Shown in pieces: positions 3,001 to 45,423 of a DNA stretch of 64,000 nt. The notes beneath the pieces were generated by a model. It was given only the letters and a program-made list of their open reading frames with translations. It had not been told where the DNA came from and did no database searches. How positions within the stretch are numbered: the stretch's first letter is position 1; each line of letters opens with the position of its first letter. A program made the position numbers and the translations under genes. Origin of the DNA: an uncultured virus (IMG/VR IMGVR_UViG_3300044699_000033) (taxonomy: Duplodnaviria; Heunggongvirae; Uroviricota; Caudoviricetes); IMG/VR virus record IMGVR_UViG_3300044699_000033; one strand, given 5' to 3'.

Positions 3001-3523
3001 CATATAAAGGTAGGTAATGTTAAATCTGCATTATTAGCTTTAAGATATCCTGCTCCTGGGTCTGAATCTACAACAGATGTAGAAAATTTATAAGGGAAAG
3101 ATGATACCATTATACCATCTGTACCACTATAGCCTGAGAAGCCACTGTCTCCTTCAAGACCTGCTCCATTATAACCACTATATCCAGAGACACCTAAAGC
3201 CCATAACCAGAGTAGCCTGAAAGTCCTAATCCTGAGTAACCAGAATAACCACTTATACCAGTTCTACCTGAGTAACCAGAATAACCTGAAACTCCAAGAG
3301 CACCATAGCCACTATAACCACTTCTACCTGATGTACCTTCCCCACTAGCACCAGAGTAGCCAGAATAGCCTGAAACAGCTTTTAACCTACATATTTTTCT
3401 CAATATGTCTGTAAGCTTTTCGCCTTTATATGTAGGAAAGCAAAATCCTGTATTACAGTCATTTACTACCTCTGACATTGGAATATTCTTATTCCTGACA
3501 ACTATGTACTTATCTGGATCCAT
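1..3523 (-). CDS. Very long (S/T)-G-(Y/F) repeat fibre/spike protein with small beta domains and the start of a pectate-lyase-like beta-helix; frameshifted, runs off the left edge
   Basis: ATG at 3523 (MDPDKYIVV...). Hundreds of SGYSGFSG triplets span several frames. The frame reads through ...SGYSAPSLMPFSTQTNTDYTLV... near 783 and ends in YDYVCDGTADDVQILAAIAALPSTGGRILLSEGTFNI, typical of beta-helix tailspike N-caps. Confidence 0.65.
790..2760 (-). repeat. Degenerate 9-nt tandem repeat encoding Ser/Thr-Gly-Tyr/Phe triplets
   Basis: Units such as TCAGGTTAT/AGTGGATAT/TCTGGTTAC, with synonymous variation, repeat continuously on the minus strand. Confidence 0.95.
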
Positions 3524-6800: not shown

Positions 6801-9645
6801 CTTTTATACTCTTCTTCATTTATAAATCCTCCTTCTAGTCTTTGTTGAAGTGTGAGTTTTGCTTTTTCAAACATTGCTTTCCCTCTTTCTGTAATTTCAT
6901 ACTTACCATACTTAGTTTTCAGTTCAGCATACTGATTAGCAATATCTGAAAGTTCCTTTTCAAATCCTGTCTTTTCTGTTCCATCCTCATTGTACTTACT
7001 CTTAAGTTGTCTTTGCTTAATATGAAGTTCTTCTATATCTTCTTGTAATTTGTCAAGAACTTCCTGAACTATTTCCTCTTCTCTTCTTTGTTCTGCATCT
7101 TCAATATCTTCAAATATATATCCTCTTTCTCTTCCAAATGTAGTCTTTGTTCCATCCTCTTTTGTTATTTCCTTTTCAAGTAAATCATACATGTCAAGAA
7201 TCTCATTATTGTATTGATTCTGAGAGTTTTCTCTAAAGAAATCTCTTCTTTCCTTGTATGCCTGATTAAGCTTTTCTCTGTAAAGAGTAAGCTTTTCTAA
7301 GTCATTATTTCTATCTGCATCTGATAATTTCTTGTAATAGTAATCAATTTGTGCTTTCTTTTCTGTAGCATCCTTTATATATTCAGGAGAGTATTCAGAA
7401 AGAAGCATTCTTTGTGTAGTATATTCATACTTTGGTTTTCCATTTTCTAGTACAATCTCACCATTTGCATCCTCTACAATAGTATTTGCTCTGCTAACCA
7501 GCACTTCTATTGGTTTATAGAAGCTTTCTGTAGACCTCACACCTTGTAATTCTGATATACCTAAAGCCTTGAGTAGTTTATCAAATTGTCTTTGGTGCTC
7601 ATTCTGAATTGACAGCATTGCCTGAGAGACAGCTATGTTATTCTGTCTTATCATCTTCATCATGGTATTATTAATAGGGTGGTCATTCATCATGCCAGAT
7701 TCAAAATGAAGCTGACCCCATGAAGAATCTCTATAGTTACCTTGCAGGATAAGTTCAAAGTTAGCTTTGTTGGGAACAAGCTTAAGTTTTTCCATTTCCA
7801 TTGTTATCTGCTTATCTAAAAGTCCCTGCATCACAGGATCTTGTGAAGCATTTAATCTTTCCTTTAGTGATTTTATTGTAGCATTTATACTCTTCTCTGC
7901 TTCTGTTTCTCCTACAAGACCTGACAATGTATCAATAATAGCTTTCTGCGATACTTGTAAATATGTCTCTCTCACACCTGCTATTGTATCACCAATTCCT
8001 CTTAGTTGGTTTAAGAAAAGGTCTAATAGCAGCAGTATCTCCTTCTCTAAGAATTATATTTCTTACATCTCTTGCTAGAGGAGCCATGAATTCTAAAGAC
8101 TCAATATTTCTAAGAAGTGAATAAGCAAGTGTAAGTTGTTTAGCAGGATCATCTAATTTTGGAACTTCTAATAGTTGTTGCTCCATTTCCCTTGCTATAA
8201 CTCCTGCTTGCACAAGCATATTAATACCTACGCTGATAACTTTATCATTTTCTTTTACATCATTAAAAGCATCTAAAAGTCTTTGTAATTTCTTTATTTG
8301 CTCCTTATCTGTTTCATAATCTAATTGCTTTTTGATTTTAATTACAGCAGTAGGTAGCTGTCTTAACACCTTGTTTATTTCATCTGTTACATTAGGACTT
8401 GTAAAGAGATCAAATGCAGCCTGGGAGTAGGATCTTGGTTGATTAAGATACAATACAGCATTGTTCCAATTTGCAGAGGATGGTTTACAATATCTCTATT
8501 GTTTGCTTGTATTTCTTCTGAATTAATAACCTCTATTGTTTCATCATATAAAGAAGGTTTGTCTTTTAAACCAATTAGTTCGAGAATATAATCTATAATA
8601 CTATGGAACAAAGACTTTTTTTGAGTAGAAGGAATTGTTCTTAACCAATCCTGAAATAAGGATTTCCATAAGTTTCTGCAATAAATTCCTGAACATTCTT
8701 AAAAGCATAAGGTAAATCATTCTTTGTATATCCTTGTCTAAAAGTATCTTCAAAAGAAGAAGTTTCATTATGATGTTTCAAAGCAGCAAAAAAGAAAGTA
8801 TACAATTCACTATTACTAGTAATGTTTGGAACACTGTAATAAGTTGCGGCATGTCCCAACTCATGTAATATAGTTATAGATATAGCTTGTTTAAAAGGTA
8901 TATTTGTTTTCTGTGACGTATTATATATTTCAGGAAGAGAAATAACTACCTCATTTTTTCTAACACTAAAATGTGATATATCTTCATCAGTAAATTTTAT
9001 TGTATATCTAGGGTTAGCTTTTCTAGCATTACTTAATACTTGAGAGTATTCCTGCATATATTCATGCATAAAATCCTGAGGAGTAGATGTTTCTGTTAAT
9101 CCTGCTTCATGTAGAATTGTATTATAATCTAAACCATCTATTATTACTGGTGAATCATCAAACTGATAATCTCTTTTCTCAAAAGATCCTTCATATTGGT
9201 CAACTAAAGATTCTGAAGGACTAACAGAATAAACAAGAGGGTTTTCATCTGTACTTTTCACTACTTCTTCTCCATACTGAGAATTTAGAGAATTAATAAT
9301 ATCTTGGTAGGGAGAATTTACATCTTTTGGAGAAAACAGGTTATATTGCTGAGAAATGCCAAAAAGATTTTGCCCTGCCACATTTAAAGCCCCTTGTCTT
9401 TCAGATTCAGAAGATGCTGATTGCTTGGCTATTTCTCTAAGAAAATCTTCAGGATTTGCTAAAAATCCCTGTCTGAAAATATCAGATGGTATTTCCTGAG
9501 CATATTTCTTAATATCCTCTAAATCAATAGGGGAGCCAGGAGGATTTACTCTATTGAATAATTGACTAGTATCCAATGATTTAGCAACCTCATCTTTGAT
9601 GCCTTGTCTAATACTATCTCTATCTATATAACATTTTCCTGCCAT
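3813..9645 (-). CDS. Giant (~1900 aa) virion-ejected protein with N-terminal zincin-like motif; fragmented by frameshifts
   Basis: Abutting ORF pieces 8641-9645, 8387-8611, 7989-8453, 6671-7975, 6233-6598, 6036-6233, 3986-6046 and 3813-4001. HELGH (8851-8865) is followed by EFIAE. Position after the RNAP gene matches crAss-like gene order. Confidence 0.65.
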
Positions 9646-35639: not shown

Positions 35640-36164
35640 TTATATTTGTCTCCACATACTAAACCCTCCAAGAGTATTTCTTGATACTCTAATTTTCTCA
35701 GGATTTTGATCTGTGTACTTTTTTGCTATAATATTCATCTTCCTAGTAGGTTCAAAACCAAAGAATTGTAGCATTTTATTGAACTTAACTGCCCACCTTC
35801 TTTCCCATTTTATCTTTGCCACCTTCCCTCTTGTAAGAAGATTTATATGATTTATCTTCTCTCCTACTTCACTTGAACTATGAGGGTCTTCTGCTTTTAG
35901 CTTGTAAGGAATATACTGTAGTTTCAGCTCTCCTGTATATGAACCTAGTTTGACACCTAATGGATTAAAAATAGCTTCTTCTCTTATTGTTTCAGCTATG
36001 TCCATCCATAAGCGATAGAACTCTTTTGTAGAAAGCTTATATTCAGGAAACTGCTTTAAAAAACTTCTACAAAGCTCATCAGTAACTACTGATTTAGAGT
36101 ACTTAGCCTTTCTCATTCTGGGAGCTTTTTGGTCCACAGAGTATGTTGGTTTTGCTTGCTTCAC
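35640..36164 (-). CDS. IHF/HU-like DNA-binding protein (crAss type)
   Basis: Basic 174 aa; IREEAI...GVKLGSYTGELKL resembles the HU/IHF arm; heads the tail operon as in crAss-like phages. Confidence 0.5.
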   Translation of the reverse strand: MKQAKPTYSVDQKAPRMRKAKYSKSVVTDELCRSFLKQFPEYKLSTKEFYRLWMDIAETIREEAIFNPLGVKLGSYTGELKLQYIPYKLKAEDPHSSSEVGEKINHINLLTRGKVAKIKWERRWAVKFNKMLQFFGFEPTRKMNIIAKKYTDQNPEKIRVSRNTLGGFSMWRQI

Positions 36165-36197
36165 TTATAAAATTATAACTTATAATATCCTCAGTAT

Positions 36198-36228
36198 CAA
36201 ATATACATGATTTTGCTGACATATCAAA
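36198..36228 (-). promoter_or_regulatory. Bacteroidota promoter (TTTG-N19-TATATTTG) for the tail operon
   Basis: -7 element at 36198-36205, -33 TTTG at 36225-36228. Confidence 0.6.
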
Positions 36229-36244
36229 ATTAACCTATATTGTT

Positions 36245-36275
36245 AAAAGAAAAAGCCTCTCATTTTTGAGAGGCT
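36245..36275 (-). terminator. Intrinsic terminator
   Basis: AGCCTCTCA-AAAA-TGAGAGGCT followed by TTTTCTTTT. Confidence 0.85.
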
Positions 36276-36297
36276 CTGTTAGGGTTTTGGTTTACAA

Positions 36298-36567
36298 TTA
36301 TTCAGTTGCAGATGATGGTGGAACAGGCGTGACATTTTGTTGTATAAATGCCATAATTGGGTTAATTGTCTTCCAATCTAAGCCTTTAAGTTCACCTACT
36401 GCATTAAGGATGGCATTTATTGCCTTTTCTGAAATAAGGTACATTTTCTCCTGTGGTTGTGCAGGGGCTGTTGCTACTACTGGAGCTTTTGGTGCCCTTT
36501 TAGGAGCACCCTTCCCTGGTATATCCACTACTTTTGAGTCTGTTGTTGATTCTTCTGTTAATGACAT
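36298..36567 (-). CDS. Small hypothetical protein
   Basis: 89 aa with its own TATCTTTG promoter (36585-36592, TTTG 19 nt upstream) and terminator. Confidence 0.6.
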   Translation of the reverse strand: MSLTEESTTDSKVVDIPGKGAPKRAPKAPVVATAPAQPQEKMYLISEKAINAILNAVGELKGLDWKTINPIMAFIQQNVTPVPPSSATE

Positions 36568-36653
36568 AAAATATATATTTTTAACAAAGATATGAAATTT
36601 CCAGAATTATCCAAATCTTAAATGTTAAAGAAATGTTAAAGGATTATTAAAAG

Positions 36654-36736
36654 TGGGCAGAGAAGGGATTCGAACCTTCAAACTCTTAGGAGACCTGTTT
36701 TACAGACAGGGTGCTTTACCATTTGCATATCTACCC
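36654..36736 (-). tRNA. tRNA-Tyr: tRNA-Tyr(GTA)
   Basis: Anticodon arm CCTGT-CTGTAAA-ACAGG, long variable arm, TTCGAAT T-loop. Confidence 0.93.
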
Positions 36737-36740
36737 AAGT

Positions 36741-36831
36741 TGCGGAGAGTAAGGGAATTCAACCCTTATCCCAAATTAATGGGACTCTGTTTAGCAAACA
36801 GATGCAGCCAAGCAATATCTGCCTACTCTCC
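36741..36831 (-). tRNA. tRNA-Ser: tRNA-Ser(GCT)
   Basis: GGAGAGT acceptor, TCTGT-TTGCTAA-ACAGA, long variable arm, G73. Confidence 0.9.
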
Positions 36832-36836
36832 AATAG

Positions 36837-36918
36837 AGGAAGGTGAAGTAATCGAAACCTGATGTTTTACCACCGCCTGGGGTTCAAAGCCAGTTACCCA
36901 CCTTGAGTGCCACCTTCC
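36837..36918 (-). tRNA. tRNA-Ser: tRNA-Ser(TGA), 8/4-type cloverleaf
   Basis: Acceptor GGAAGGTG/CACCTTCC (8 bp), T-stem AGGT/ACTT (4 bp), loop TTTGAAC, variable arm. Confidence 0.8.
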
Positions 36919-36923
36919 TTATG

Positions 36924-36998
36924 TCCTTCTAGCTGGATTCGAACCTGCACTTTTACAAGGTTTAAGCTTGTCATGTCTGCCAATTGCATCATAGAAGG
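36924..36998 (-). tRNA. tRNA-Leu: tRNA-Leu(TAA), short variable region
   Basis: ACAAG-CTTAAAC-CTTGT; Leu-type D-arm ATGCAATTGGCAGACAT; A73. Confidence 0.88.
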
Positions 36999-37002
36999 AT
37001 AG

Positions 37003-37076
37003 TGACCCTGAAGAGACTCGAACTCTTAAATAACTGATCCTAAGTCAGTTGTGTCTACCAATTGCACCACAGGGCC
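37003..37076 (-). tRNA. tRNA-Leu: tRNA-Leu(TAG), short variable region
   Basis: ACTGA-CTTAGGA-TCAGT; Leu-type D-arm; A73. Confidence 0.9.
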
Positions 37077-37079
37077 AAT

Positions 37080-37109
37080 AAAAAACCCCCAACTTTTCAG
37101 CCGGGGGTT
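37080..37109 (-). terminator. Attenuator terminator A, upstream of the Leu/Ser/Tyr tRNAs
   Basis: AACCCCCGGCT-GAAA-AGTTGGGGGTT-TTTT ending 3 nt before tRNA-Leu(TAG). Confidence 0.88.
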
Positions 37110-37131
37110 ATTAAGTGTACGCAGGTCTCCG

Positions 37132-37209
37132 TTATTTTGTACATACCATTCCCAGCTTGTTCTTTGACAAGAGTGATAAACTGGAATAATATGATAGAAT
37201 GAATATCAT
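37132..37209 (-). CDS. Leader peptide A (MIFILSYYSSLSLLSKNKLGMVCTK)
   Basis: 25-codon ORF with 11 consecutive Leu/Ser/Tyr codons, overlapping the antiterminator strand. Confidence 0.8.
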   Translation of the reverse strand: MIFILSYYSSLSLLSKNKLGMVCTK

Positions 37210-37211
37210 TT

Positions 37212-37364
37212 TTAAATATGACCTGTTGCTGTCAATACTGCAAGCACTATAGTTGCTACTATAGCCACAATATTAACTGCTGTTTTTGTTGTTTGGCTTG
37301 CTGCAACATTCCCATTAAAGAGATACATTACAACAAATAAAGCTGCTAATAAGAACCAATTCAT
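37212..37364 (-). CDS. 50-aa two-helix membrane protein
   Basis: MNWFLLAALFVVMYLF...VAIVATIVLAVLTATGHI; ATG 3 nt after TATATTTG (37368-37375). Confidence 0.6.
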   Translation of the reverse strand: MNWFLLAALFVVMYLFNGNVAASQTTKTAVNIVAIVATIVLAVLTATGHI

Positions 37365-37406
37365 AGGCAAATATACAACCTTTTAACGAAGACTCTAAAT
37401 TTTATT

Positions 37407-37868
37407 TTAGAATTCTTCAGTTGTAGTTTCTGTAGTTGATTCTGTTGTTGTTGCTTCAGTTGTAGTCTCAGTTGTAGACTCTGTTGTAGTCTCAGTAGTT
37501 GTTTCAGTTGTAGTATCACCTACAGTAGAAGCAACATCTGCTGATGTAGCAGCAACTTGATCCTTGATTGCTTGAACTTGATCAATAACAGCTTGAATTT
37601 GTTCAGGAGATGCACTTTCTGCAAGTTGAGCCTGAAGAGCTGCAATTGTTTCATTAAGCCCTTGAACAACAGCAGCATTTGTATCAAGCAATGCTTGAAT
37701 TTGCTCTTGTTCTGCATCTACAGTTTCTTGTAGACCTGCAACTTGTGATTTAAGTTCTGCAACTTGTTCGTTAAGAATTTCGACTTTTCCCATAATTTGA
37801 TTGAGTTTTTTAAGTATTAAAGATTCGTTTTCAAAATGATTGTGAATATGTATGTGTAATCCTGTCAT
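37407..37868 (-). CDS. Coiled-coil protein with Thr/Glu-rich tail
   Basis: Heptad-like Q/A/L pattern; C-terminal TTTE repeats. Confidence 0.65.
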   Translation of the reverse strand: MTGLHIHIHNHFENESLILKKLNQIMGKVEILNEQVAELKSQVAGLQETVDAEQEQIQALLDTNAAVVQGLNETIAALQAQLAESASPEQIQAVIDQVQAIKDQVAATSADVASTVGDTTTETTTETTTESTTETTTEATTTESTTETTTEEF

Positions 37869-37958
37869 AATTTTAATATTACACTTTGTTTGTGTGGTAA
37901 ATATACGAATAATAATTGAATCTACAAAATTTATTTGTCTATTTTTTGTAAAAAATTT

Positions 37959-38114
37959 TTAGAATATAGCTTTTGCTATAAAATAGAGAAGTAAAACAAT
38001 TGCAGAAATGATAAGAATATGCTTTAATCTAAGTTTGTAAGGAGCGTAATAATGTACTCCCAATAAAATGATAAAACACAATACGAATACCAGTATAAAG
38101 TAAATTAAGGACAT
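37959..38114 (-). CDS. Small membrane protein
   Basis: MSLIYFILVFVLCFIILLG...ILIISAIVLLLYFIAKAIF, two hydrophobic helices. Confidence 0.45.
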   Translation of the reverse strand: MSLIYFILVFVLCFIILLGVHYYAPYKLRLKHILIISAIVLLLYFIAKAIF

Positions 38115-38233
38115 GAATAACTGCAATATAGTCCTTTTGTGCGAAACTATTATTATATAATTACGACTAAATGTTATATAATTCCCACATATAATACTAC
38201 AATTACTATGCCAAAGATATAACACATTACTAA

Positions 38234-38308
38234 TGTGGAGGATACCAGCATCGAACTGGTGACTCTAGCTTGCAAAGCTAGTGTTTTTGCCATCTATACT
38301 AATCCCCC
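38234..38308 (-). tRNA. tRNA-Ala: tRNA-Ala(TGC)
   Basis: G3:U70; CTAGC-TTTGCAA-GCTAG. Confidence 0.92.
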
Positions 38309-38373
38309 AGAAGGGCATTGATTGAGGGCTCAATGCTCAAAGCCTTTTGTAACATCCCTGCCTAAGGCAGAGA

Positions 38374-38535
38374 CTAAACTCCTTTAAATGTTTGACCACT
38401 TAAAGAGAAATACTCTCTTGCAGAAATTTTGTTTCTTACAAAGAGAGAGATTGCATTTCCTTTGTTAGCAGATTTCTTCTTATTTCTGCCACATTTCCTG
38501 CAACCTTTTACTTTTTGTCCATCTCTTTTAGCCAT
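38374..38535 (-). CDS. 53-aa basic protein with CxxC
   Basis: MAKRDGQKVKGCRKCGRNKKK...; A-rich upstream context. Confidence 0.5.
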   Translation of the reverse strand: MAKRDGQKVKGCRKCGRNKKKSANKGNAISLFVRNKISAREYFSLSGQTFKGV

Positions 38536-38614
38536 TTTCTGTGTTGGCTAGCTGTTTTGTCAGCTAGTTACCACGTTAGGCTATTTCTTGCTTTTCTCAT
38601 TTTGCTTGTTTTAG

Positions 38615-38687
38615 TGCAGCTAATAGGATCTGAGCCTATGACCTCTTGCTTATCAGACAAGTGCTCTACCAACTGAGCTATAGCTGC
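38615..38687 (-). tRNA. tRNA-Ile: tRNA-Ile(GAT)
   Basis: CTTGT-CTGATAA-GCAAG; canonical D-arm. Confidence 0.9.
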
Positions 38688-38691
38688 AATT

Positions 38692-38808
38692 TTAACAGGA
38701 AGTTTTATATTTTCTAATTCTTCCTCTCCTTCTTCTAATACAGATAAGACATGCACCATTGCATTTAATAATCTTTCTTATACTTTTTATTCTTTCCACC
38801 CTTCTCAT
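38692..38808 (-). CDS. 38-aa Arg/Lys/Cys-rich mini-protein
   Basis: MRRVERIKSIRKIIKCNGACLICIRRRRGRIRKYKTSC fills the spacer between two tRNAs. Confidence 0.35.
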   Translation of the reverse strand: MRRVERIKSIRKIIKCNGACLICIRRRRGRIRKYKTSC

Positions 38809-38882
38809 GTTGACTTGCCCAGAGTCGAACTGGGACAGCTCATGTTATGAGCATGATTCTCTACCAATTAAGATACAAGTCA
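38808..38882 (-). tRNA. tRNA-CAT (elongator Met or lysidine-Ile2)
   Basis: TCATG-CTCATAA-CATGA; identity not resolvable by eye. Confidence 0.85.
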
Positions 38883-38885
38883 ATT

Positions 38886-38960
38886 TGGCCGAGAGTGGGA
38901 GGTTCGAACTCCTACCTTTTGCGTGACAAGCAAATATGCAGCCATTACACCACACCCTCG
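38886..38960 (-). tRNA. tRNA-Asp: tRNA-Asp(GTC), folds best as 8/4
   Basis: TTTGC-TTGTCAC-GCAAA; G73 and encoded CCA. Confidence 0.88.
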
Positions 38961-38964
38961 GTAT

Positions 38965-39192
38965 TTACATATATCTTATAAGATGCTTTGCTTCCATTTC
39001 AGGAAGAAAATCTGCATCTCCCATATCTGAAACAGGTACATAAAATGTAATTACCATTACACCACTTCCTGGAGTACCTATGGTAGCCTCATAGTAAGCT
39101 GTACCTTTCCTGATATATAAGAACTTTGCCTTTGGTTTCTCTTTATAAAGAGCCTTTTTGATAATTTCAGTACTTAAAATGCTATTATCCAT
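38965..39192 (-). CDS. Hypothetical protein
   Basis: 75-aa ORF between tRNAs (IKKALYKEKPKA...VPVSDMGDADF). Confidence 0.65.
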   Translation of the reverse strand: MDNSILSTEIIKKALYKEKPKAKFLYIRKGTAYYEATIGTPGSGVMVITFYVPVSDMGDADFLPEMEAKHLIRYM

Positions 39193-39206
39193 ATTGTTGA
39201 TTTTAG

Positions 39207-39278
39207 TACTCTATGAGAGGATCGAACTCTCTTCAACAGTTTGAAGGACTGCTATCCTGGCCATTAGACGAATAGAGC
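39207..39278 (-). tRNA. tRNA-Glu: tRNA-Glu(TTC)
   Basis: GCAGT-CCTTCAA-ACTGT; Glu-type D-arm GTCTAATGGCCAGGAT. Confidence 0.85.
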
Positions 39279-39311
39279 ATTTCCACTTTAACCTGGTCCA
39301 GTGGGAAGGTA

Positions 39312-39385
39312 GGAGCACCAGTGGAGTAACAATCTCCATACTCCAGTTTGGAAGACTGGTGTGTATTCATCAACACTTCTGATGC
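39312..39385 (-). tRNA. tRNA-Gly: tRNA-Gly(TCC)
   Basis: CCAGT-CTTCCAA-ACTGG; U73; atypical T-loop ATTGTTA. Confidence 0.82.
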
Positions 39386-39544
39386 ATGGAGGGAGACTGG
39401 TTATTTATACCATTAATTAGGGACTCTCCCAGACCCTTCTTGCTCTTTGTTACTCAGGGAGAGGCGGTTCATAGTATTACCCACCTTCAAGAGATTACTT
39501 TATTCCCTCAGGTTCTTTACCCTCCCCGTGAGTAACTTAATTAT

Positions 39545-40032
39545 TTATATATCTCTGGGTGCTACAAACATGGTCAGCAGCCTTTGTTGTAATAACATGA
39601 TCTCCTTTGAATTCTGCATTATAGTTTAAACCCTTTCATCCATCCATTTACAGCAGATACTAGTTTATTACTTGCCCACTTTGGGATTTGATTATAGTCA
39701 AACTCTAAAGCTTCAAAGGATATAGGTATCTCAGAATCAATTAGTTGTGCTGCTTCTAATGTCCTTTCAGCTTCTCCAAAGAGTCTTGTGTACATGTCTC
39801 TTATGATTGGAAGCTGCTCTCTGTAATAGACAAAGTGTGCTCCTCTGTGTCCATACCTATATGCTACTACAGTAACATACACTGTATTCCTCTTTCTCCT
39901 ACCTTTTCCTCTTTCATCCTGAGAGTCAGTACCAACATAGATTTTCATATTAGGCCACTTTTGTAATTGCTCTAAAGTGTGCTCAACTATGTTAACTCTT
40001 TCACCTTGTTGTGTTCTGAAGTACTTGTCCAT
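39545..40032 (-). CDS. RNase H-like YkuK (DUF458) family protein; C-terminal frameshift
   Basis: KIYVGTDSQ...YVTVVAYRYG.RGAH...RLFGEAERT...FDYN; the shifted frame continues ...FKGDHVITTKAADH. Confidence 0.8.
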
Positions 40033-40273
40033 TGGTTCTAATTAATCTATAATACCTACCTCTTCTTGTTTTCTTTATAATAATCTTTAATCTTCTAAGA
40101 ATTCTAGGAACATGGTGACCCATATAAATCCTCTCATATCCTACCTTCTTTTCAAAAGCTTCATCAATGAGTTCCATTCCTCCTATACCTGTTCTGACAA
40201 CAATCTGTCTTGCAGGAGGACAGTCACCACCCCAATATTCTATAATTGCTTTCTTTATAGTTTCTGTATCCAT
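40001..40273 (-). CDS. Hypothetical basic protein
   Basis: MDTETIKKAII...; ATG 4 nt after TATCTTTG (40278-40285). Confidence 0.55.
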   Translation of the reverse strand: MDTETIKKAIIEYWGGDCPPARQIVVRTGIGGMELIDEAFEKKVGYERIYMGHHVPRILRRLKIIIKKTRRGRYYRLIRTNGQVLQNTTR

Positions 40274-40313
40274 ATTACAAAGATAATAATCAAATTTCAA
40301 AGAACCAAATAAA

Positions 40314-40389
40314 TGTTGCAGGTGTTGGATTCGAACCAACGATCTCTAAGGTTATGAGCCTTGAAGGATGACCACTTCCCTAACCTGCA
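40314..40389 (-). tRNA. tRNA-Met: tRNA-Met(CAT), initiator-like
   Basis: AAGG-CTCATAA-CCTT; fMet-like D-arm GGAAGTGGTCATCC. Confidence 0.85.
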
Positions 40390-40393
40390 ATAT

Positions 40394-40468
40394 TGCTCCC
40401 CCTCAGAATTTTGAAATCTGGACCTCAACCTTAACAGGGTTTTGCTCTGCCCTCTGAGCTAAAGGGGA
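40394..40468 (-). tRNA. tRNA-Asn: tRNA-Asn(GTT)
   Basis: TCCCCT acceptor, AACC-CTGTTAA-GGTT, G73. Confidence 0.9.
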
Positions 40469-40476
40469 ATATTTAG

Positions 40477-40549
40477 CACACCTGAGAGGATTCGAACCTC
40501 TATCTTACAGTTTAGAAAACTGGGGCAATCTCCTTTATACTACAGGTGC
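40477..40549 (-). tRNA. tRNA-Arg: tRNA-Arg(TCT)
   Basis: CAGT-TTTCTAA-ACTG. Confidence 0.87.
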
Positions 40550-40553
40550 ATTC

Positions 40554-40628
40554 TGTAGAGCCACCCAAATTCGAATTGGGAACAAAGGTTTAGGAAACCT
40601 TTATTTTATCCTATTAAACTATGGCTCC
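40554..40628 (-). tRNA. tRNA-Arg: tRNA-Arg(CCT)
   Basis: AAGGT-TTCCTAA-ACCTT. Confidence 0.87.
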
Positions 40629-40631
40629 ATT

Positions 40632-40705
40632 TGTACAGGGTGAGAATTTTGAAATCTCGACTTCCACTTTGTAGGAGTGGCACTCTTCCTCTGAGTTAAC
40701 CCTGC
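40632..40705 (-). tRNA. tRNA-Val: tRNA-Val(TAC)
   Basis: CCACT-CCTACAA-AGTGG; A73. Confidence 0.88.
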
Positions 40706-40706
40706 A

Positions 40707-40877
40707 TCACTTTAAATTCTTCAATTGTATCATTAAAGCTGATATTTCACTTGTATACTTACTTACACTAATTTCAGCAGTATTAGATGTTTTCTGCTTT
40801 AAATTAGAATACATTTCATCCTCAAGGAACTTAATCCTGTCTATTAGTTTTTGTCTTTTCTTTTCTATCTTGCTCAT
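40707..40877 (-). CDS. Small basic helical protein
   Basis: MSKIEKKRQKLIDRIKFLEDEM...; fills the spacer between tRNAs. Confidence 0.6.
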   Translation of the reverse strand: MSKIEKKRQKLIDRIKFLEDEMYSNLKQKTSNTAEISVSKYTSEISALMIQLKNLK

Positions 40878-40888
40878 ATATTTGGTTT

Positions 40889-40962
40889 TGTGACCCCAGT
40901 GAGCCATGATCTCACAACCCCAGTTTAAGAGACTGGTACTCTGCCAATTGAGCTATGGAGTC
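40889..40962 (-). tRNA. tRNA-Lys: tRNA-Lys(CTT)
   Basis: CCAGT-CTCTTAA-ACTGG; atypical T-loop. Confidence 0.85.
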
Positions 40963-40965
40963 TAG

Positions 40966-41038
40966 TCCCCCTGAGAGGAGTCGAACCTCCTGTCTTCTGA
41001 TTAAAAGTCAGTAGCTTGTCCAAATAAGCTCCAAGGGG
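40966..41038 (-). tRNA. tRNA-Lys: tRNA-Lys(TTT)
   Basis: CTGA-CTTTTAA-TCAG; TTCGACT T-loop. Confidence 0.9.
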
Positions 41039-41042
41039 AAAT

Positions 41043-41072
41043 AAAAAACCCAGAGCTTTTGACTCTGGGCTT
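41043..41072 (-). terminator. Attenuator terminator B, upstream of the Lys...Ala tRNAs
   Basis: GCCCAGAG-TCAAAAG-CTCTGGGT-TTTTT, 4 nt before tRNA-Lys(TTT). Confidence 0.88.
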
Positions 41073-41107
41073 CTAATATTCTGTCTGTACTTTATATTAA
41101 TTCAATA

Positions 41108-41188
41108 TCAGACAATAGAAAACCCAGAGCCAAATTTGCCATTTGCCTCAATTCCTCTATTATCCACTATCATATATAAGTTGTACAT
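41108..41188 (-). CDS. Leader peptide B (MYNLYMIVDNRGIEANGKFGSGFSIV)
   Basis: 26-codon ORF; 13 consecutive codons match the amino acids of the downstream tRNA set; overlaps the antiterminator strand 41116-41131. Confidence 0.8.
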   Translation of the reverse strand: MYNLYMIVDNRGIEANGKFGSGFSIV

Positions 41189-41215
41189 TTTCTGCTGTTA
41201 TTAAATTTTAGAATA

Positions 41216-41247
41216 CAAATATACGGAATTACTTTGAACTTTCCAAA
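41216..41247 (-). promoter_or_regulatory. Bacteroidota promoter (TTTG-N20-TATATTTG) driving leader B and tRNA group B
   Basis: -7 element 41216-41223; -33 TTTG 41244-41247. Confidence 0.75.
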
Positions 41248-41534
41248 TTTATTTTTGGAACTTTCTTAATTAACCCTAATTTCTTCTTCATACTCTTAGT
41301 TTGGGGAGCAGCTTGCCTCTTTTGCAGGAGTTCAGCTTTGTCCTTTCTCTTTGTATGGTAATTTATTAATTCCCAATGAGTCTCATGATTAAGTTGGAAA
41401 ACCTTGTCAAAAAACTCTATTTTCTCTTTTTCCTTAATCTGGTCTAGCCTTTTCTTGTATAAATCTTTCCTTATTTGATTATATACCCTTGCTTTCATGG
41501 CAAGAGTTTTCAATGATATATTTATCTGTTTCAT
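41229..41534 (-). CDS. Basic helical hypothetical protein downstream of the PTH2-like gene
   Basis: MKQINISLKTLAMKARVYNQIRK... Confidence 0.55.
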   Translation of the reverse strand: MKQINISLKTLAMKARVYNQIRKDLYKKRLDQIKEKEKIEFFDKVFQLNHETHWELINYHTKRKDKAELLQKRQAAPQTKSMKKKLGLIKKVPKINLESSK

Positions 41535-41887
41535 TTTTATTAATTTTATTTTTGAATAAAAGTGGTATTTTAGATACCAATTTCTGTGTAAGTGGACTTG
41601 GTTCAATAGCTATTGCTGTTATTTCATTCCCAATGTCAGGTTCTCTAAAAGCTGTATAGGCTAATTGTAGCCTGTCACAGTTTTGCATTAGAAGCTTAAG
41701 TTGTTTTTCATTCTTAAGTTCTAAGAGAACAAGGTAATTGGAGTTTTTAAACCAAGGACCAGCTCTTCCAGGATGTTCAAAGATAAATTAATAGCAGCAT
41801 GGGCTGACTGCACTGCTTTGTACCCATCTGATAAGTCCTCTCTTGTGACTAATTATCAGCTTACTGTATTTCTTGTATCTACTTCAT
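41479..41887 (-). CDS. Peptidyl-tRNA hydrolase PTH2-like protein (frameshifted; TAG at codon 3)
   Basis: Reconstructed KLII-VTREDLSDGYKAVQSAHAAI...NYLVLL...FREPDIGNEITAIAIEP...IPLL, the phage PTH2-like signature. Confidence 0.75.
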
Positions 41888-41901
41888 AATGAATCTTTTA
41901 G

Positions 41902-41974
41902 AGATGCTGATGGGGCTCAACCCACAACTGGGAATTTTAGAGATTGCCTGCTCTATCAATTGAGCTACAGCACC
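41902..41974 (-). tRNA. Amber suppressor tRNA (anticodon CTA)
   Basis: GGTGCTG/CAGCATC acceptor, GCTC/GAGC D-stem, loop CT-CTA-AA. One anticodon-stem mismatch and a 6-nt T-loop (possible errors). Own TACATTTG promoter at 41981-41988. Confidence 0.72.
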
Positions 41975-42009
41975 ATAGCACAAATGTAGGCAAATTCAGG
42001 AGATTTACC

Positions 42010-42781
42010 AATATTATTTTTAAGAAGTTTAATTGTCCAGAATACAGCAGCCAAATTGGGTCTGTAATATAACTGAAAGGGAGGTAAAAATGCCCCTTAT
42101 TTCCCAGTTTGTTCCCCAAGAGTTTCTGATTTTACAATTGCTGTCTTTCATCATCATACCCTACACAGCATACAGCATGAACTCCTAAGCATTTTCTCAT
42201 CAGGTGTAGCAATGGCACTATACCTGTGTTGTAACCTGTGTGCTTTCAAAGCTTGAATACACTGCAAAACCAAAGACAATGTAAAGTCCTGTAGCTAGAC
42301 AAGTTTTTAGCTCATTAATGTTAGTATTATCCAGTCTCTCATAAACATCTATTTTATGAGGTATGGCTGTTGTGTAAGCACCAGTAGGTGGTTTTTGCCT
42401 GAATTTGATTTATTTTATAAGGCCAAATTGTCTCTGGACAAGCACCCCAGTTATAATACTTTTAATACCATCTCTTAACATGGCACCTGAATCATAGGGA
42501 ACAGTACCTTCTATAACCTTTCATTGTTAATATATAAAGAGCCTAGAGGGTTGTATGATGGGAAGTCCTTCTTTGAATTTTGTGAAATCAAGAGAAAGAG
42601 AGATAGCATTTCCTGTGCAGGGAGGCCTAAGCTTCTCTTGGTCATATGTATATGTTACCTGTCTAGATAAGTCTACCCTGTGAGGTAGTTCAATTTGTGC
42701 AGGTGAGAAATTTTAAGTCTCTAACAGTCAGGAGTATCTGGCTTACCAGGTGTATTTATATCTATGTTTTAATTGTGACAT
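42010..42781 (-). CDS. Papain-like C1A cysteine peptidase (heavily frameshifted)
   Basis: Pieces read YDQ...CTGNAIS, PSRLFIY, DSGAMLRDGIKS, WPY, HAVCCVGYDD, RNSWG..WG.KGHFYLP. Confidence 0.8.
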
Positions 42782-42797
42782 ACCAAGTTTATTTTTG

Positions 42798-42868
42798 AGC
42801 AGGTAAAGAGATTTGAACTCTTAAAAGCAGTTTCGTGGACTGCTGGTTAATCCATTGCCTATACCTGC
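42798..42868 (-). tRNA. tRNA-Arg: tRNA-Arg(ACG)
   Basis: GCAGT-CCACGAA-ACTGC; GCAGGTA/TACCTGC acceptor. Confidence 0.8.
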
Positions 42869-42869
42869 A

Positions 42870-43200
42870 TTATTTGAAATAATTAAGAGCAAACATTGCA
42901 AGGTTAAAATAATGGTAATTGCTGCTACCCACCCTGCCTGCCTGTTCTGCTTATCTATAAGAAGCTGGACTTTAGCATTAACTTCCTTTATTTCAGACTC
43001 ATATACTTCCCTAGGAAATAAACTAGCCTGCATAAGTCTTAAACTTTCTGCCTCATGATTAAGTATTTCTAAACGTCTTTCATACTCTTTGCCTGAATCT
43101 CAAGAGCTTTTTCTTGGTATTTATCCTTTTCTGTTAAGATTTCCTTTGCATGGTTAATTTGAGCTTGCAAGAATTCCTTTGTATATTGTATTTCATCCAT
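42870..43200 (-). CDS. Coiled-coil protein with C-terminal TM helix (frameshifted)
   Basis: MDEIQYT...EKRLEILNHEAESLRLMQASLFPREVYE...GWVAAITIILTL. Confidence 0.45.
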
Positions 43201-43248
43201 CTTCTATAATATAAGGAAATTAACGGAAATCTCCAAATCTTTCTGTTT

Positions 43249-43321
43249 TGGGTGTAAGGACGGTATTGAGCCGACTTCCATGCTCCACAGGCATGTGCTT
43301 CACCTTAAAGCTTCAAACACC
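43249..43321 (-). tRNA. tRNA-His: tRNA-His(GTG)
   Basis: G-1/C73; CATGC-CTGTGGA-GCATG. Confidence 0.82.
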
Positions 43322-43358
43322 ATTTGCGTAGAATAAGTGCCTTATTCTCCTTAAAAAG

Positions 43359-43427
43359 ATCCCCTGACTGGACTTGAACAATAACTTTAGATCCAAATTC
43401 TAAAATGTTACCATACACTACAGAGGA
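43359..43427 (-). tRNA. tRNA-Gln: tRNA-Gln(TTG), T-arm degraded (likely sequence error)
   Basis: T1-A72 acceptor TCCTCTG/CAGGGGA; TTAGA-ATTTGGA-TCTAA. Confidence 0.7.
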
Positions 43428-43430
43428 ATG

Positions 43431-43503
43431 TGCACCCATGTAAAGATTCGAACTCTAACTAACTGGTTTGGAATCAGTTGTGCTACCATTACACTACACG
43501 GGT
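43431..43503 (-). tRNA. tRNA-Trp: tRNA-Trp(CCA)
   Basis: ACTG-ATTCCAAAC-CAGT; G73. Confidence 0.87.
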
Positions 43504-43545
43504 ATATATCTTATATCCATTTAGAGACTTTTAAAGTCCCCACAG

Positions 43546-43617
43546 TGGTACAGGGCAGATTTGAACTGCCAACACCCTGAGCTTCATTCAGGTGCTCTAC
43601 AATGGAGCTACTGTACC
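43546..43617 (-). tRNA. tRNA-Phe: tRNA-Phe(GAA)
   Basis: CCTGA-ATGAAGC-TCAGG. Confidence 0.87.
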
Positions 43618-43707
43618 ATTTGTCACTGTACACTCTTTGAGGGTTGTACTCCTGTTGGAGACCCGTTATGACATTAAATATAAAAGACGGGTCAAGCTTC
43701 TATATCT

Positions 43708-43780
43708 TGGAGTCACCTAGAGGATTTGAACCCCTGTAGGAGCTTTTGCAGAGCTCTGCCTACCACTCGGCCAAGGTGAC
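43708..43780 (-). tRNA. tRNA-Cys: tRNA-Cys(GCA)
   Basis: GAGCT-CTGCAAA-AGCTC; U73 and CCA. Confidence 0.92.
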
Positions 43781-43850
43781 AATAGTCAGGGAAGTACCAC
43801 CGATGGCTTTGAGTACACTTTCAGTACCTGAAATTAGCTTCCCTTTTAAG

Positions 43851-43925
43851 AGCCTCCTGTCGGGCTCAAACCAACTAATTCCTCATTACAAGTGAGGTAC
43901 TCCTTATCTTCAGAGAATAGGAGGC
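43851..43925 (-). tRNA. tRNA-Thr: tRNA-Thr(TGT)
   Basis: GCC acceptor start; CCTCA-CTTGTAA-TGAGG. Confidence 0.85.
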
Positions 43926-44014
43926 ATTGGGCTGGTGTAATGGCTGCCCTGCCAATTGACTTCTCGACTACACCTGTGAGTCAATAGACCTATTATATTG
44001 CTCAGAGAATCACC

Positions 44015-44089
44015 TGTATAGTAGACCGGGGTCGAACCTGCATTCCACTTGCTCCCAGGCAAGGGACTTACCAATTAGTCAACTACTAT
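44015..44089 (-). tRNA. Probable tRNA-Pro (NGG; anticodon loop reads only 6 nt, CTGGGA)
   Basis: Full cloverleaf; CTTGC-CTGGGA-GCAAG, one base probably missing. Confidence 0.65.
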
Positions 44090-44094
44090 AAATG

Positions 44095-44126
44095 AAAAAC
44101 CTTCATCTTGAGATCATGAAGGGCTT
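44095..44126 (-). terminator. Attenuator terminator C, upstream of the Pro...Arg(ACG) tRNAs
   Basis: CCTTCAT-GATCTCAAG-ATGAAGG-TTTTT, 5 nt before the first tRNA. Confidence 0.78.
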
Positions 44127-44149
44127 TAAAGAATCCGTGTTAAATATTT

Positions 44150-44231
44150 TTAACAGACATAGCAAACCCTTCCTGTTTCTGGTTGAAACTGGGGACAAAA
44201 CGTATGCCATGTATGACGTAATTTTGTTCAT
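44150..44231 (-). CDS. Leader peptide C (MNKLRHTWHTFCPQFQPETGRVCYVC; requires removal of one A near codon 3)
   Basis: 82 nt from ATG to TAA (81+1); 13 consecutive codons CGT...CCA match the downstream tRNA set. Confidence 0.7.
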
Positions 44232-44236
44232 TTTTG

Positions 44237-44323
44237 TTATTTTTTAGGCTTTGGTCTTGGTCTAGTGGGTCTACCACCACCACTTCCACAACCACAGCCA
44301 ACTATTGCTGTGTTTTTTACCAT
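44237..44323 (-). CDS. 28-aa peptide MVKNTAIVGCGCGSGGGRPTRPRPKPKK
   Basis: Clean ATG-TAA ORF between the promoter and leader C. Confidence 0.55.
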   Translation of the reverse strand: MVKNTAIVGCGCGSGGGRPTRPRPKPKK

Positions 44324-44339
44324 GTGTTTAATTATAACA

Positions 44340-44370
44340 CAAATATACTAAATTTTTTTCAACTTCCAAA
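44340..44370 (-). promoter_or_regulatory. Bacteroidota promoter (TTTG-N19-TATATTTG) driving leader C and tRNA group C
   Basis: -7 element 44340-44347; -33 TTTG 44367-44370; lies just after a terminator. Confidence 0.78.
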
Positions 44371-44384
44371 TTTATTTTTTAAAG

Positions 44385-44409
44385 AAAAAAGGGATGTAGA
44401 AACATCCCT
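44385..44409 (-). terminator. Intrinsic terminator ending the fibre gene operon
   Basis: AGGGATGT-TTCT-ACATCCCT-TTTTT. Confidence 0.85.
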
Positions 44410-44459
44410 AGAAGTTACCCTTGGAAACCAACAACCAAGGACTTTATTAAACTAAAGAT

Positions 44460-45423
44460 TTATGTAAATGTTCCTGTTATATACCAAGTTGTACTTGCTG
44501 TTTTAGTTATAGTTGCAACAGCATCTGCTGGAATTGTTCTACTACCTGTTCCTGTAGTACCATCTCCTCTTTGTAAAGTATCAGAGTTTATTGCAAGTGT
44601 AATAGCACCTGAACCTGTGGCATTAACAATTGTTATTCTTGTTCCCACTGCATATGCCACCGAAGCATTAGCAGGAATTGTCCATGTTGTAGCTGTAGAG
44701 GAATGTAAAAGTATATTATTAGCATCACCTATAACAAATGTGTAAGTTTGTCCGGAGATGTAACTATTGATGCAGAAGAGTACCCTGAATAACCTGTTAT
44801 TCCAGAATATGCACTATAGCCTGAAGTTGATGAGTATCCGCTGTAACCTGTATAGCCACTGAAGCCTGACCAGGTCCACTGTAGCCAGAGTACCCTGTGT
44901 AGCCTGAGTAACCAGACTTGCCTGAGTAACCAGAGAAACCACTGGTACTAGAATATCCGCTGAAACCAGATGTAGAAGAGTAACCAGAATATCCTGTATA
45001 ACCTGAGTAACCAGATTTTCCAGAATATCCGGAATAACCAGTATAACCTGAAAATCCACTACCTGAATAACCACTGAAACCTGAACCTGAATAACCAGAA
45101 TAACCAGATTGACCTGTGTAGCCGCTAAAGCCTGAAGTAGATGAATACCCACTAAAGCCTGAAGTGGATGAATAACCTGAAAAACCACTTAAACCTAAAC
45201 CAGAATATCCTGAGAATCCAGAGCCTGAATATCCGCTATATCCTGACCTTCCACTATAACCTGAGTATCCAGATATTGAGGAGTAACCACTAAAACCTGA
45301 AGAATAATAGCCTGAGTAGCCACTAGTGCCTCCTCCAGCAATCTTTCTTACAGCTTTTTTAACTTCTGTTTTCTTGAAAAAAGCAGCTATAGTATCCCCT
45401 AAAAATTCTCTTAATACACTCAT
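44460..45423 (-). CDS. SGY-repeat fibre protein with C-terminal beta-sandwich module (frameshifted)
   Basis: MSVLREFLG..., SG(Y/F) repeats, then TYTFVIGDA...WTIPANASVAYAVGTRITIV...WYITGTFT. Confidence 0.65.

Follow-up and report, generated by a model that had tools for sequence, protein, structure and literature searches.

We found that the region at 37209..37078 on the minus strand of the window, the whole 64,000-nt stretch of viral DNA analysed here, is very probably a ribosome-mediated, codon-sensing transcription attenuator of a Leu/Ser/Tyr tRNA cluster. Judged from its sequence, the phage probably makes Leu, Ser and Tyr tRNAs when ribosomes read the corresponding codons slowly. The attenuator is supported by its anatomy, its conservation, the match between its codons and the downstream tRNAs, and an alternative pairing that co-varies between loci. 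From these we infer that the leader is translated, that a stalled ribosome decides termination, and in which direction the system responds.

The window has a GC content of 35% and encodes all its long ORFs on the minus strand. A match of one ORF to the Crassvirus major capsid family (PF23898, E = 3.9e-8), together with promoter-like sites of the Bacteroidota form, indicates that the window comes from a crAss-like phage. Several soil metagenome runs hold DNA nearly identical to the window, and the leader region is not an assembly artefact, since contigs from four soil DNA runs carry it with 0 differences. A blastn search of 36600-37900 against cultured phages returned only tRNA-Tyr-sized matches, in seven cyanophage records, and no relatives. 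The tRNA array of the window was assigned 22 tRNAs by ARAGORN and 23 matches by Rfam; the Rfam matches at 40634-40705 and 43251-43320 were missed by ARAGORN. The array and the cluster downstream of the attenuator, hereafter attenuator A, are as follows:

44089..36653, minus strand: tRNA array, located between two structural-gene blocks
37002..37076, minus strand: tRNA-Leu(UAG), 75 nt with a short variable region, called by ARAGORN and Rfam
36923..36998, minus strand: tRNA-Leu(UAA), 76 nt with a short variable region, called by ARAGORN and Rfam
36832..36920, minus strand: tRNA-like sequence at the place of the relatives' tRNA-Ser(UGA), from alignment and fold
36742..36831, minus strand: tRNA-Ser(GCU), 90 nt, called by ARAGORN
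36653..36736, minus strand: tRNA-Tyr(GUA), 84 nt, called by ARAGORN and Rfam

The initial annotation had described five class II tRNAs under the control of the leader. This description holds for tRNA-Ser(GCU) and tRNA-Tyr(GUA), which at 90 and 84 nt fit the class II length of about 82-90 nt. The two Leu tRNAs, at only 75 and 76 nt, lack a long variable arm and are therefore not class II, while those of the relatives L002 and L008 measure 82-87 nt. Neither ARAGORN nor Rfam calls a tRNA at about 36920..36832, the proposed Ser-TGA gene. In the alignment, this sequence takes the position of the Ser(UGA) tRNAs of relatives, and it retains an acceptor stem and a loop centred on UGA; as it nevertheless goes uncalled, we regard it as tRNA-like and possibly decayed.

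Upstream of this cluster, the minus strand carries the complete set of elements expected of a leader attenuator:

37368..37400, minus strand: promoter-like site of the Bacteroidota type (an upstream TTT-rich box and a TAnnTTTG box), 5' of the 50-codon ORF and the leader
37212..37364, minus strand: hydrophobic ORF of 50 codons counted from its ATG, on the same transcript as leader A
37132..37209, minus strand: leader A ORF, 25 codons and a stop
37165..37197, minus strand: control run A, 11 consecutive Leu/Ser/Tyr codons, codons 5-15 of the leader
37178..37193, minus strand: segment 1, 5' side of the 1:2 hairpin, within the control run
37142..37158, minus strand: segment 2, partner of either segment 1 or the terminator 5' arm, from the minimum free energy (MFE) fold and duplex energies
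37099..37109, minus strand: segment 3, terminator 5' arm, from the fold
37078..37094, minus strand: segment 4, terminator 3' arm (37094..37084) followed by the T-run, from the fold

Re-reading the minus strand returned the control codons exactly as they had been listed, 11 consecutive Leu/Ser/Tyr codons at 37197-37165. Terminator A (37109..37084) consists of 11 pairs, six of them G-C, with a 4-nt loop and a T-run, and lies 7 nt from the start of tRNA-Leu(UAG) at 37076, leaving too little room for a promoter in between. The promoter-like pattern has 13 matches in the window against 5.6 expected; six of the matches fall within 36198-44371 of the minus strand, half of them in front of the three leaders that we describe in this phage. 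The MFE fold of 37215..37077 contains both the 1:2 hairpin (37193-37178 with 37158-37142) and the terminator, at -37.5 kcal/mol (z = -3.87), and none of 200 shuffled sequences folded as well. A scan of 36000-45000 against Rfam at E <= 1 returned no T-box match, nor any other match within 37077-37215, and an exact search for the terminator A sequence in viral contigs returned 0 stretches.

We searched for relatives through two proteins encoded in or next to the array. The first query, a 174-aa protein just downstream of the array, led to loci with 55-61% protein identity. Among them, L002, L007 and L008 have tRNA arrays, L003 has two Ser tRNAs only, at its contig end, and L001, L012, L013, L014 and L010 have no tRNAs and thus no leader to compare. 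The second query, a 137-aa RNase H-like protein (PF04308) located inside the array, returned 80 viral loci, 56 of them with at least eight tRNAs. The tRNA order of the window (Pro/Thr/Cys/Phe/Trp/Gln/His/Arg(ACG); Lys/Lys/Val/Arg(UCU or CCU)/Asn/Met; Gly/Glu/Asp/Ile/Ala; Leu/Leu/Ser/Ser/Tyr) is common to eight contigs: the window, L007, L008 (partial), L133 and the four IMG/VR records behind L019-L022. Three of the eight were first located by a pattern of the leader core, which is a biased route; the protein search recovered these three as well (as L134, L135 and L152), and neighbouring proteins with 47-61% identity to those of the window lead to all seven relatives. A 15-nt pattern from the second leader of the window, leader B, gave 110 stretches; two of the 80 examined were tRNA arrays of this kind, both already known.

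The layout of attenuator A is conserved throughout this group. An ATG-started leader ORF of about 20-30 codons stands just upstream of the first Leu tRNA in 8/8 arrays, every one of these leaders has a run of 9-12 Leu/Ser/Tyr codons that begins 3-5 codons past the start, and a terminator lies 7-27 nt before the first Leu tRNA in all eight. Within a 27-nt core that is near-identical in seven of these loci, the four substitutions counted by eye from codon lists are synonymous. The sequence preceding the leader is more variable. In the window, the TAA stop of the 50-codon ORF is separated from the leader ATG by 2 nt, a spacing that the initial annotation had reported correctly and had taken as a sign of translational coupling. 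A small basic protein occupies this place in L002 and a coiled-coil protein in L019, while in L007 and L133 the leader follows the promoter itself. Since the upstream neighbour varies in this way, coupling is not a conserved part of the design.

We further asked how unusual the control run is. Leu, Ser and Tyr make up 18.3% of the 14,775 codons in the 32 long ORFs of the window, and run A is the longest run of these residues in the window across all six frames, where four runs reach at least 9 codons, two at least 10 and one at least 11. The tRNA-less relative L001 contains four such runs of 8-10 codons by chance (six frames). As other runs in the window reach 9-10 codons, run length alone is mildly unusual and weak evidence; the standout features of run A are its position and strand, before the Leu/Ser/Tyr tRNAs. 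A scan of 165,692 nt from seven of these phages, covering three frames of the array strand, found Leu/Ser/Tyr runs of at least 8 codons in the seven leaders and nowhere else. The 80 viral loci, totalling 1,058,824 nt, hold eight runs of at least 8 codons, and all four that reach at least 9 directly precede a Leu tRNA.

The three pairings that had been proposed, 1:2, 2:3 and 3:4, were all found in the window by MFE folding and duplex energies. The terminator hairpin has an energy of -18.4 kcal/mol, the 1:2 duplex -16.4 kcal/mol and the 2:3 duplex -14.1 kcal/mol; compared with shuffles, p is 0.023 for 1:2 and 0.014 for 2:3, the latter with z = -2.9. The initial annotation had made its reading depend on the 2:3 helix being able to compete, and at -14.1 against -16.4 kcal/mol for 1:2 this helix is indeed competitive. 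Across the eight A leaders, the energy of the 2:3 duplex lies between -6.5 and -14.1 kcal/mol and p is at most 0.032 in 6/8; L007 is a marginal case (p = 0.064), and in L019 the pairing falls short of significance (p = 0.25). The arm sequences of the terminator differ among the A loci and segment 2 co-varies to match them. In the leaders of the B family, the pairing reaches p <= 0.01 in 7/7. Of the C leaders, this scoring covered G004, and the C terminators are included in the control below. We relied on energies and shuffles computed locus by locus because MAFFT, when given the eight leader regions, left the terminator arms of L133, L020 and L008 out of register.

As a control, we compared the 5' arm of each terminator with a 63-nt stretch found 12-75 nt further upstream, counting as tRNA-preceding those terminators found within 45 nt of a tRNA. 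Upstream complementarity at p <= 0.05 was found for 11/13 tRNA-preceding terminators and for 1/28 others in the same phages (Mann-Whitney p = 3e-6), where the 13 are members of three homologous families and thus not independent samples.

We also folded the leader with a 27-nt ribosome block. We counted five loci, leaving out L008, G004 and L133, whose arms were not located correctly. The MFE fold of the full-length region keeps the terminator wherever the block is placed, segment 1 included, so any switch must be kinetic, and equilibrium folding cannot decide a kinetic switch. When the transcript is cut before segment 4 and a ribosome is placed mid-run, the terminator 5' arm pairs with upstream sequence over 8-11 nt in 5/5 loci. 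The same cut transcript without a ribosome leaves the 5' arm free in 4/5 loci, the window being the one where it is paired (2:3). When the ribosome is instead set on the stop codon of the window leader, the cut transcript still has 7 nt of the terminator 5' arm paired upstream. The comparison of segment 1 blocked and free, suggested by the initial annotation, thus yielded the expected 2:3 helix in the cut transcript carrying a ribosome, while the full-length MFE fold did not change and the window formed 2:3 without a ribosome as well. Because 2:3 forms in the window even in the absence of a ribosome or with one at the stop, its basal read-through may be high. The end of segment 2 lies 0-11 nt before the leader stop codon in 6/8 loci, which places it within reach of a terminating ribosome in those six.

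The arrangement of a promoter-like site, a small ORF and a terminator directly before a tRNA is repeated at the Lys and Pro clusters of the same array:

41044..41188, minus strand: attenuator B, with a 26-codon leader at 41188..41108 and a terminator at 41074..41044, 5 nt before tRNA-Lys(UUU)
44095..44323, minus strand: attenuator C, with a small ORF at 44323..44237, a run at 44218..44180 and a hairpin with T-run at about 44122..44095, before the tRNA at 44089

In the window, the run of leader B comprises 13 codons of Met/Ile/Val/Asp/Asn/Arg/Gly/Glu/Ala/Lys and that of leader C 13 codons of Arg/His/Thr/Trp/Phe/Cys/Pro/Gln; the C run has no ATG of its own and the hairpin of attenuator C is weaker in the window. 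Together, the three runs of the window name all 20 amino acids. The longest B-set runs before the Lys cluster measure 8-15 codons (7/7 loci) and the longest C-set runs before the Pro cluster 11-14 codons (7/7 loci), while runs of the wrong set reach 8 at most in the A, B and C leaders. Elsewhere in the 165,692 nt, C-set runs of at least 9 codons are limited to one poly-Gln stretch. B-set runs, drawn from a larger set of amino acids, are not rare, and the same scan found 14 of at least 14 codons.

We then assigned each run codon to a tRNA by strict wobble rules, using ARAGORN-called tRNAs only. Over all leaders, the leader's own cluster supplies a reading tRNA for 204/261 codons and another cluster for 0/261, while no called tRNA reads the other 57/261; for the A leaders of the eight loci, 56/83 codons belong to their own cluster and 0/83 to another. 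The claim that the control codons of run A map onto the downstream tRNAs therefore stands for the amino acids, Leu, Ser and Tyr, and less strictly for the codons: for two of the 11, TCC and CTC, the phage has no tRNA that is strictly cognate, and the three TCA codons depend on the uncalled tRNA-like gene. The sharpest single fact in favour of a codon-to-tRNA match is the split of the Arg codons. Arg is encoded by CGY in 7/7 C leaders, whose cluster holds Arg(ACG), and by AGA in 7/7 B leaders, whose cluster holds Arg(UCU), while in the phage's own genes CGT accounts for 1% and CGC for 0% of Arg codons. Leader A, for its part, avoids the commonest Leu and Ser codons of the phage, CTT (36%) and TCT (40%).

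In a second lineage (L171, L172, L190-L196 and L209), the tRNAs are ordered differently and the amino acids divided in another way. Its leader of 34-36 codons is free of Ala, Asp, Glu and Gly, save for one Ala in L209, and is followed by a terminator and a tRNA block for Thr/Gln/Pro/Lys/Val/Tyr/Asn/Ile/His/Arg/Trp/Phe/Cys/Leu; Ala, Asp, Glu and Gly are exactly the four amino acids missing from both the leader and the block. L171 and L172 also have another leader, rich in Leu/Ile/Gly/Asp/Ala/Glu, ahead of a later block with Leu, Met, Gly, Glu and Asp tRNAs. As this lineage splits the amino acids differently and remains in step with its tRNAs, leader composition follows tRNA content in both ways of dividing the amino acids. 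Under our strict rule, no terminator directly precedes a tRNA in most of the other lineages within the 80 loci, which shows that the device is not universal.

These observations bear on whether the leader senses specific codons or merely gauges translation activity in general, its Leu/Ser/Tyr make-up being secondary and forced, for instance, by a segment 1 rich in U, A and C. The four-segment structure and its controls would fit a general gauge equally well, and pairing does constrain the run in part, through its overlap with segment 1. Such a gauge nevertheless leaves unaccounted for the three leaders of three compositions, each matched to its own tRNA cluster, and the division of Arg between CGY and AGA, which opposes the phage's own codon usage. 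It also fits poorly with L007, whose leader A has a different nucleotide sequence and still 9 Leu/Ser/Tyr codons, and with the second lineage, which partitions the amino acids otherwise and does so in step with its tRNAs. We thus consider a general gauge improbable.

Still a little less probable, in our view, is an element acting as RNA only, in which the core and hairpins serve the processing or stability of the tRNA precursor, or form a small RNA ending at the terminator, with the ORF being incidental. A 27-nt core is near-identical in 7/8 A loci, against 47-61% identity of the neighbouring proteins, and the strongly non-random fold (z = -3.87) would also be expected of a functional RNA. The ATG, reading frame and stop of leader A are, however, kept in 8/8 loci while the flanks and ORF length vary, three leaders of unrelated sequence all obey the composition rule, and the leader matches no Rfam family. 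The least probable account, a conserved micropeptide gene followed by an ordinary terminator, with tRNAs arising from leaky and unregulated read-through, can draw on the hydrophobic leader peptide of the window, which comes after another small hydrophobic ORF, and on the fact that small membrane peptides are common in phages, but the B and C leaders are not hydrophobic and have the same layout, the codon run is conserved between peptide ends that are free to vary, upstream complementarity is missing from ordinary terminators, and no room for a promoter exists between terminator and tRNA.

Under the codon-sensing attenuation that we favour, host RNA polymerase would start near 37400-37368 and transcribe the small ORF and then the 25-codon leader. 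When Leu, Ser and Tyr codons are decoded fast, the ribosome would clear the run, and either 1:2 would pair or the terminating ribosome would mask segment 2. With segment 2 unavailable, the 3:4 terminator would form and transcription would stop 7 nt before tRNA-Leu. A shortage of charged Leu, Ser or Tyr tRNA would slow decoding, and the ribosome would instead stall on the run and cover segment 1, allowing segment 2 to pair with the terminator 5' arm before the 3' arm is made. Once 2:3 has formed, the polymerase would read into the Leu, Leu, Ser-like, Ser and Tyr tRNA genes, and the new tRNAs would relieve the stall, closing a negative feedback loop. Such a loop would be self-limiting because its products are the decoders of the control codons. 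The sister units at the Lys and Pro clusters would act likewise for other amino acids. This mechanism presupposes that transcription and translation are coupled in the host.

Multivalent leader attenuators are well known from enterobacteria, where the thr leader senses Thr and Ile and the ilvGMEDA leader Ile, Leu and Val. The phage units resemble them in having a short ORF with a codon run for several amino acids, the 1:2, 2:3 and 3:4 pairings with an intrinsic terminator, and a stall that would free the antiterminator. While these enterobacterial leaders control biosynthetic enzymes, the predicted targets in the phage are tRNA genes, so that the product relieving the stall would be the decoder itself. 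The phage units further differ in that three of them divide all 20 amino acids among three tRNA clusters, and in being phage-encoded behind a Bacteroidota-type promoter. In the E. coli pheST operon, the pheM leader attenuator controls an aminoacyl-tRNA synthetase and senses one amino acid. It shares with the phage leaders the attenuation, by a leader peptide, of a gene of the translation apparatus, sensed through the decoding of cognate codons; the phage leaders, in contrast, would control tRNA genes and cover 3-10 amino acids each. T-box RNAs bind uncharged tRNA directly and need neither a ribosome nor an ORF. In both cases, the state of specific tRNAs would set the choice between terminator and antiterminator ahead of translation-related genes; in the phage, unlike in T-boxes, the predicted sensor is a translated ORF, in keeping with the lack of a T-box match in the Rfam scan.

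Phage tRNA genes are reported to be a supply against host defences that target tRNAs (PMC10264068, PMC11464382). The array analysed here is similar to those systems in that phage-encoded tRNAs replace or supplement those of the host. These reports appear to concern the function of the tRNAs, while the element described here would be the control that switches tRNA genes on when needed. A full-text literature search, mostly covering work outside subscription journals, found no published case of leader-peptide attenuation of tRNA genes. The mechanism, classical multivalent attenuation, is known; the kind of target, tRNA genes, and the logic appear to be new.

We tentatively extend this reading to the phage as a whole, as a possibility that we rate below even. 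The three leaders might together gauge decoding capacity for all 20 amino acids, each switching on just its own sub-array when its codons are read slowly. Their main use would then be counter-defence, replacing host tRNAs on demand after the action of anticodon nucleases or host shut-off, with codon-usage matching playing a lesser part.

Both the purpose of phage tRNA genes and their control are long-standing questions. Leader codons that are read by the downstream tRNAs would make tRNA supply self-regulating, the tRNA being both signal and product, and this suggests a phage answer to host defences that destroy tRNAs. The presence of three leaders provides a directly testable design, in which limiting one tRNA should elicit a response from one sub-array. 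The search rule that follows from the layout, a codon run matching the downstream tRNAs and then a terminator directly 5' of a tRNA, could bring further cases to light. The finding would bring RNA genes and the crAss-like phages of Bacteroidota within the reach of classical attenuation.

Leader C, the small ORF with a control codon run that precedes the Pro cluster, and the tRNA array behind it show the following features in the window:
44323..44180 (-), leader C, with its control run
44231..44103, second ATG-started ORF over the leader C run
41980-42700, short, broken ORFs
41901-41974, tRNA with anticodon CUA
40278-40310 (-), promoter-like site
39619-40032 (-), gene for an RNase H-like protein
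39290-39560 (-), G+C-richer stretch
38374-38535 (-), gene for a basic protein
37002-37076, tRNA with the Leu anticodon UAG
36923-36998, tRNA with the Leu anticodon UAA

In the window, the control run of leader C, made up of Arg/His/Thr/Trp/Phe/Cys/Pro/Gln codons, lacks its own ATG. It shares its frame with an upstream 28-codon ORF rich in Gly, Cys, Pro, Arg and Lys, from which it is separated by two in-frame stops, TAA then TGA; at the related phage locus L020, the small ORF and the run form a single uninterrupted ORF. Decay or re-initiation may explain the split frame in the window, as may misassembly of A-runs. The second ORF covers the DNA of the run in a different frame and enters the terminator hairpin.

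The array of another related phage, L007, is interrupted by inserted genes (2952-3293 and 7841-8275) that resemble HNH endonucleases by eye. One insertion separates the leader C terminator from tRNA-Pro, and the other separates the Leu from the Ser tRNAs in cluster A (Leu/Leu/Ser/Ser/Tyr). The two window tRNAs with Leu anticodons are only 75-76 nt long and lack a long variable arm. Short Leu tRNAs are also found in L007 (76 nt) and in L019, and ordinary ones of 82-87 nt occupy the equivalent places in L002 and L008.

Within the window array, ARAGORN labeled the amber-suppressor tRNA (anticodon CUA) Pyl. When TAG was read as sense, few window ORFs became longer. The region upstream of this tRNA holds nothing but short, broken ORFs, some of which look by eye like pieces of a papain-like peptidase and could represent a decayed gene.

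Immediately 3' of the final tRNA in the Lys cluster, which lies behind leader B, we observed a promoter-like site followed downstream by two protein genes and the Glu, Asp, Met, Ile and Ala tRNAs. This Glu/Asp/Met/Ile/Ala cluster has neither a leader nor a terminator of its own, and its amino acids are present in leader B; control of this cluster may lie with attenuator B, with its own promoter or with the two together. Just upstream of tRNA-Glu is the G+C-richer stretch, about 270 nt without an ORF, in which visual inspection shows numerous inverted repeats. Neither the tRNA finders nor Rfam gave a call there, and the Gly tRNAs of relatives sit at about this position.

Proteins are also encoded inside the array. 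Between tRNA-Ile and tRNA-Ala lies the gene for a basic protein of 53 aa with a Cys-x2-Cys motif and no match in Pfam, preceded by a conserved small hairpin. In L002 the gene for the 53-aa basic protein (367-519) is directly upstream of leader A, and its stop overlaps the leader ATG. The RNase H-like protein (137 aa) matches PF04308 (E = 8.7e-11). Among the 80 viral loci encoding its IMG/VR relatives (L133-L212), 72 carry at least one tRNA and 56 at least eight, in diverse tRNA orders. Relatives of this RNase H-like protein are thus a good marker for phage tRNA arrays.
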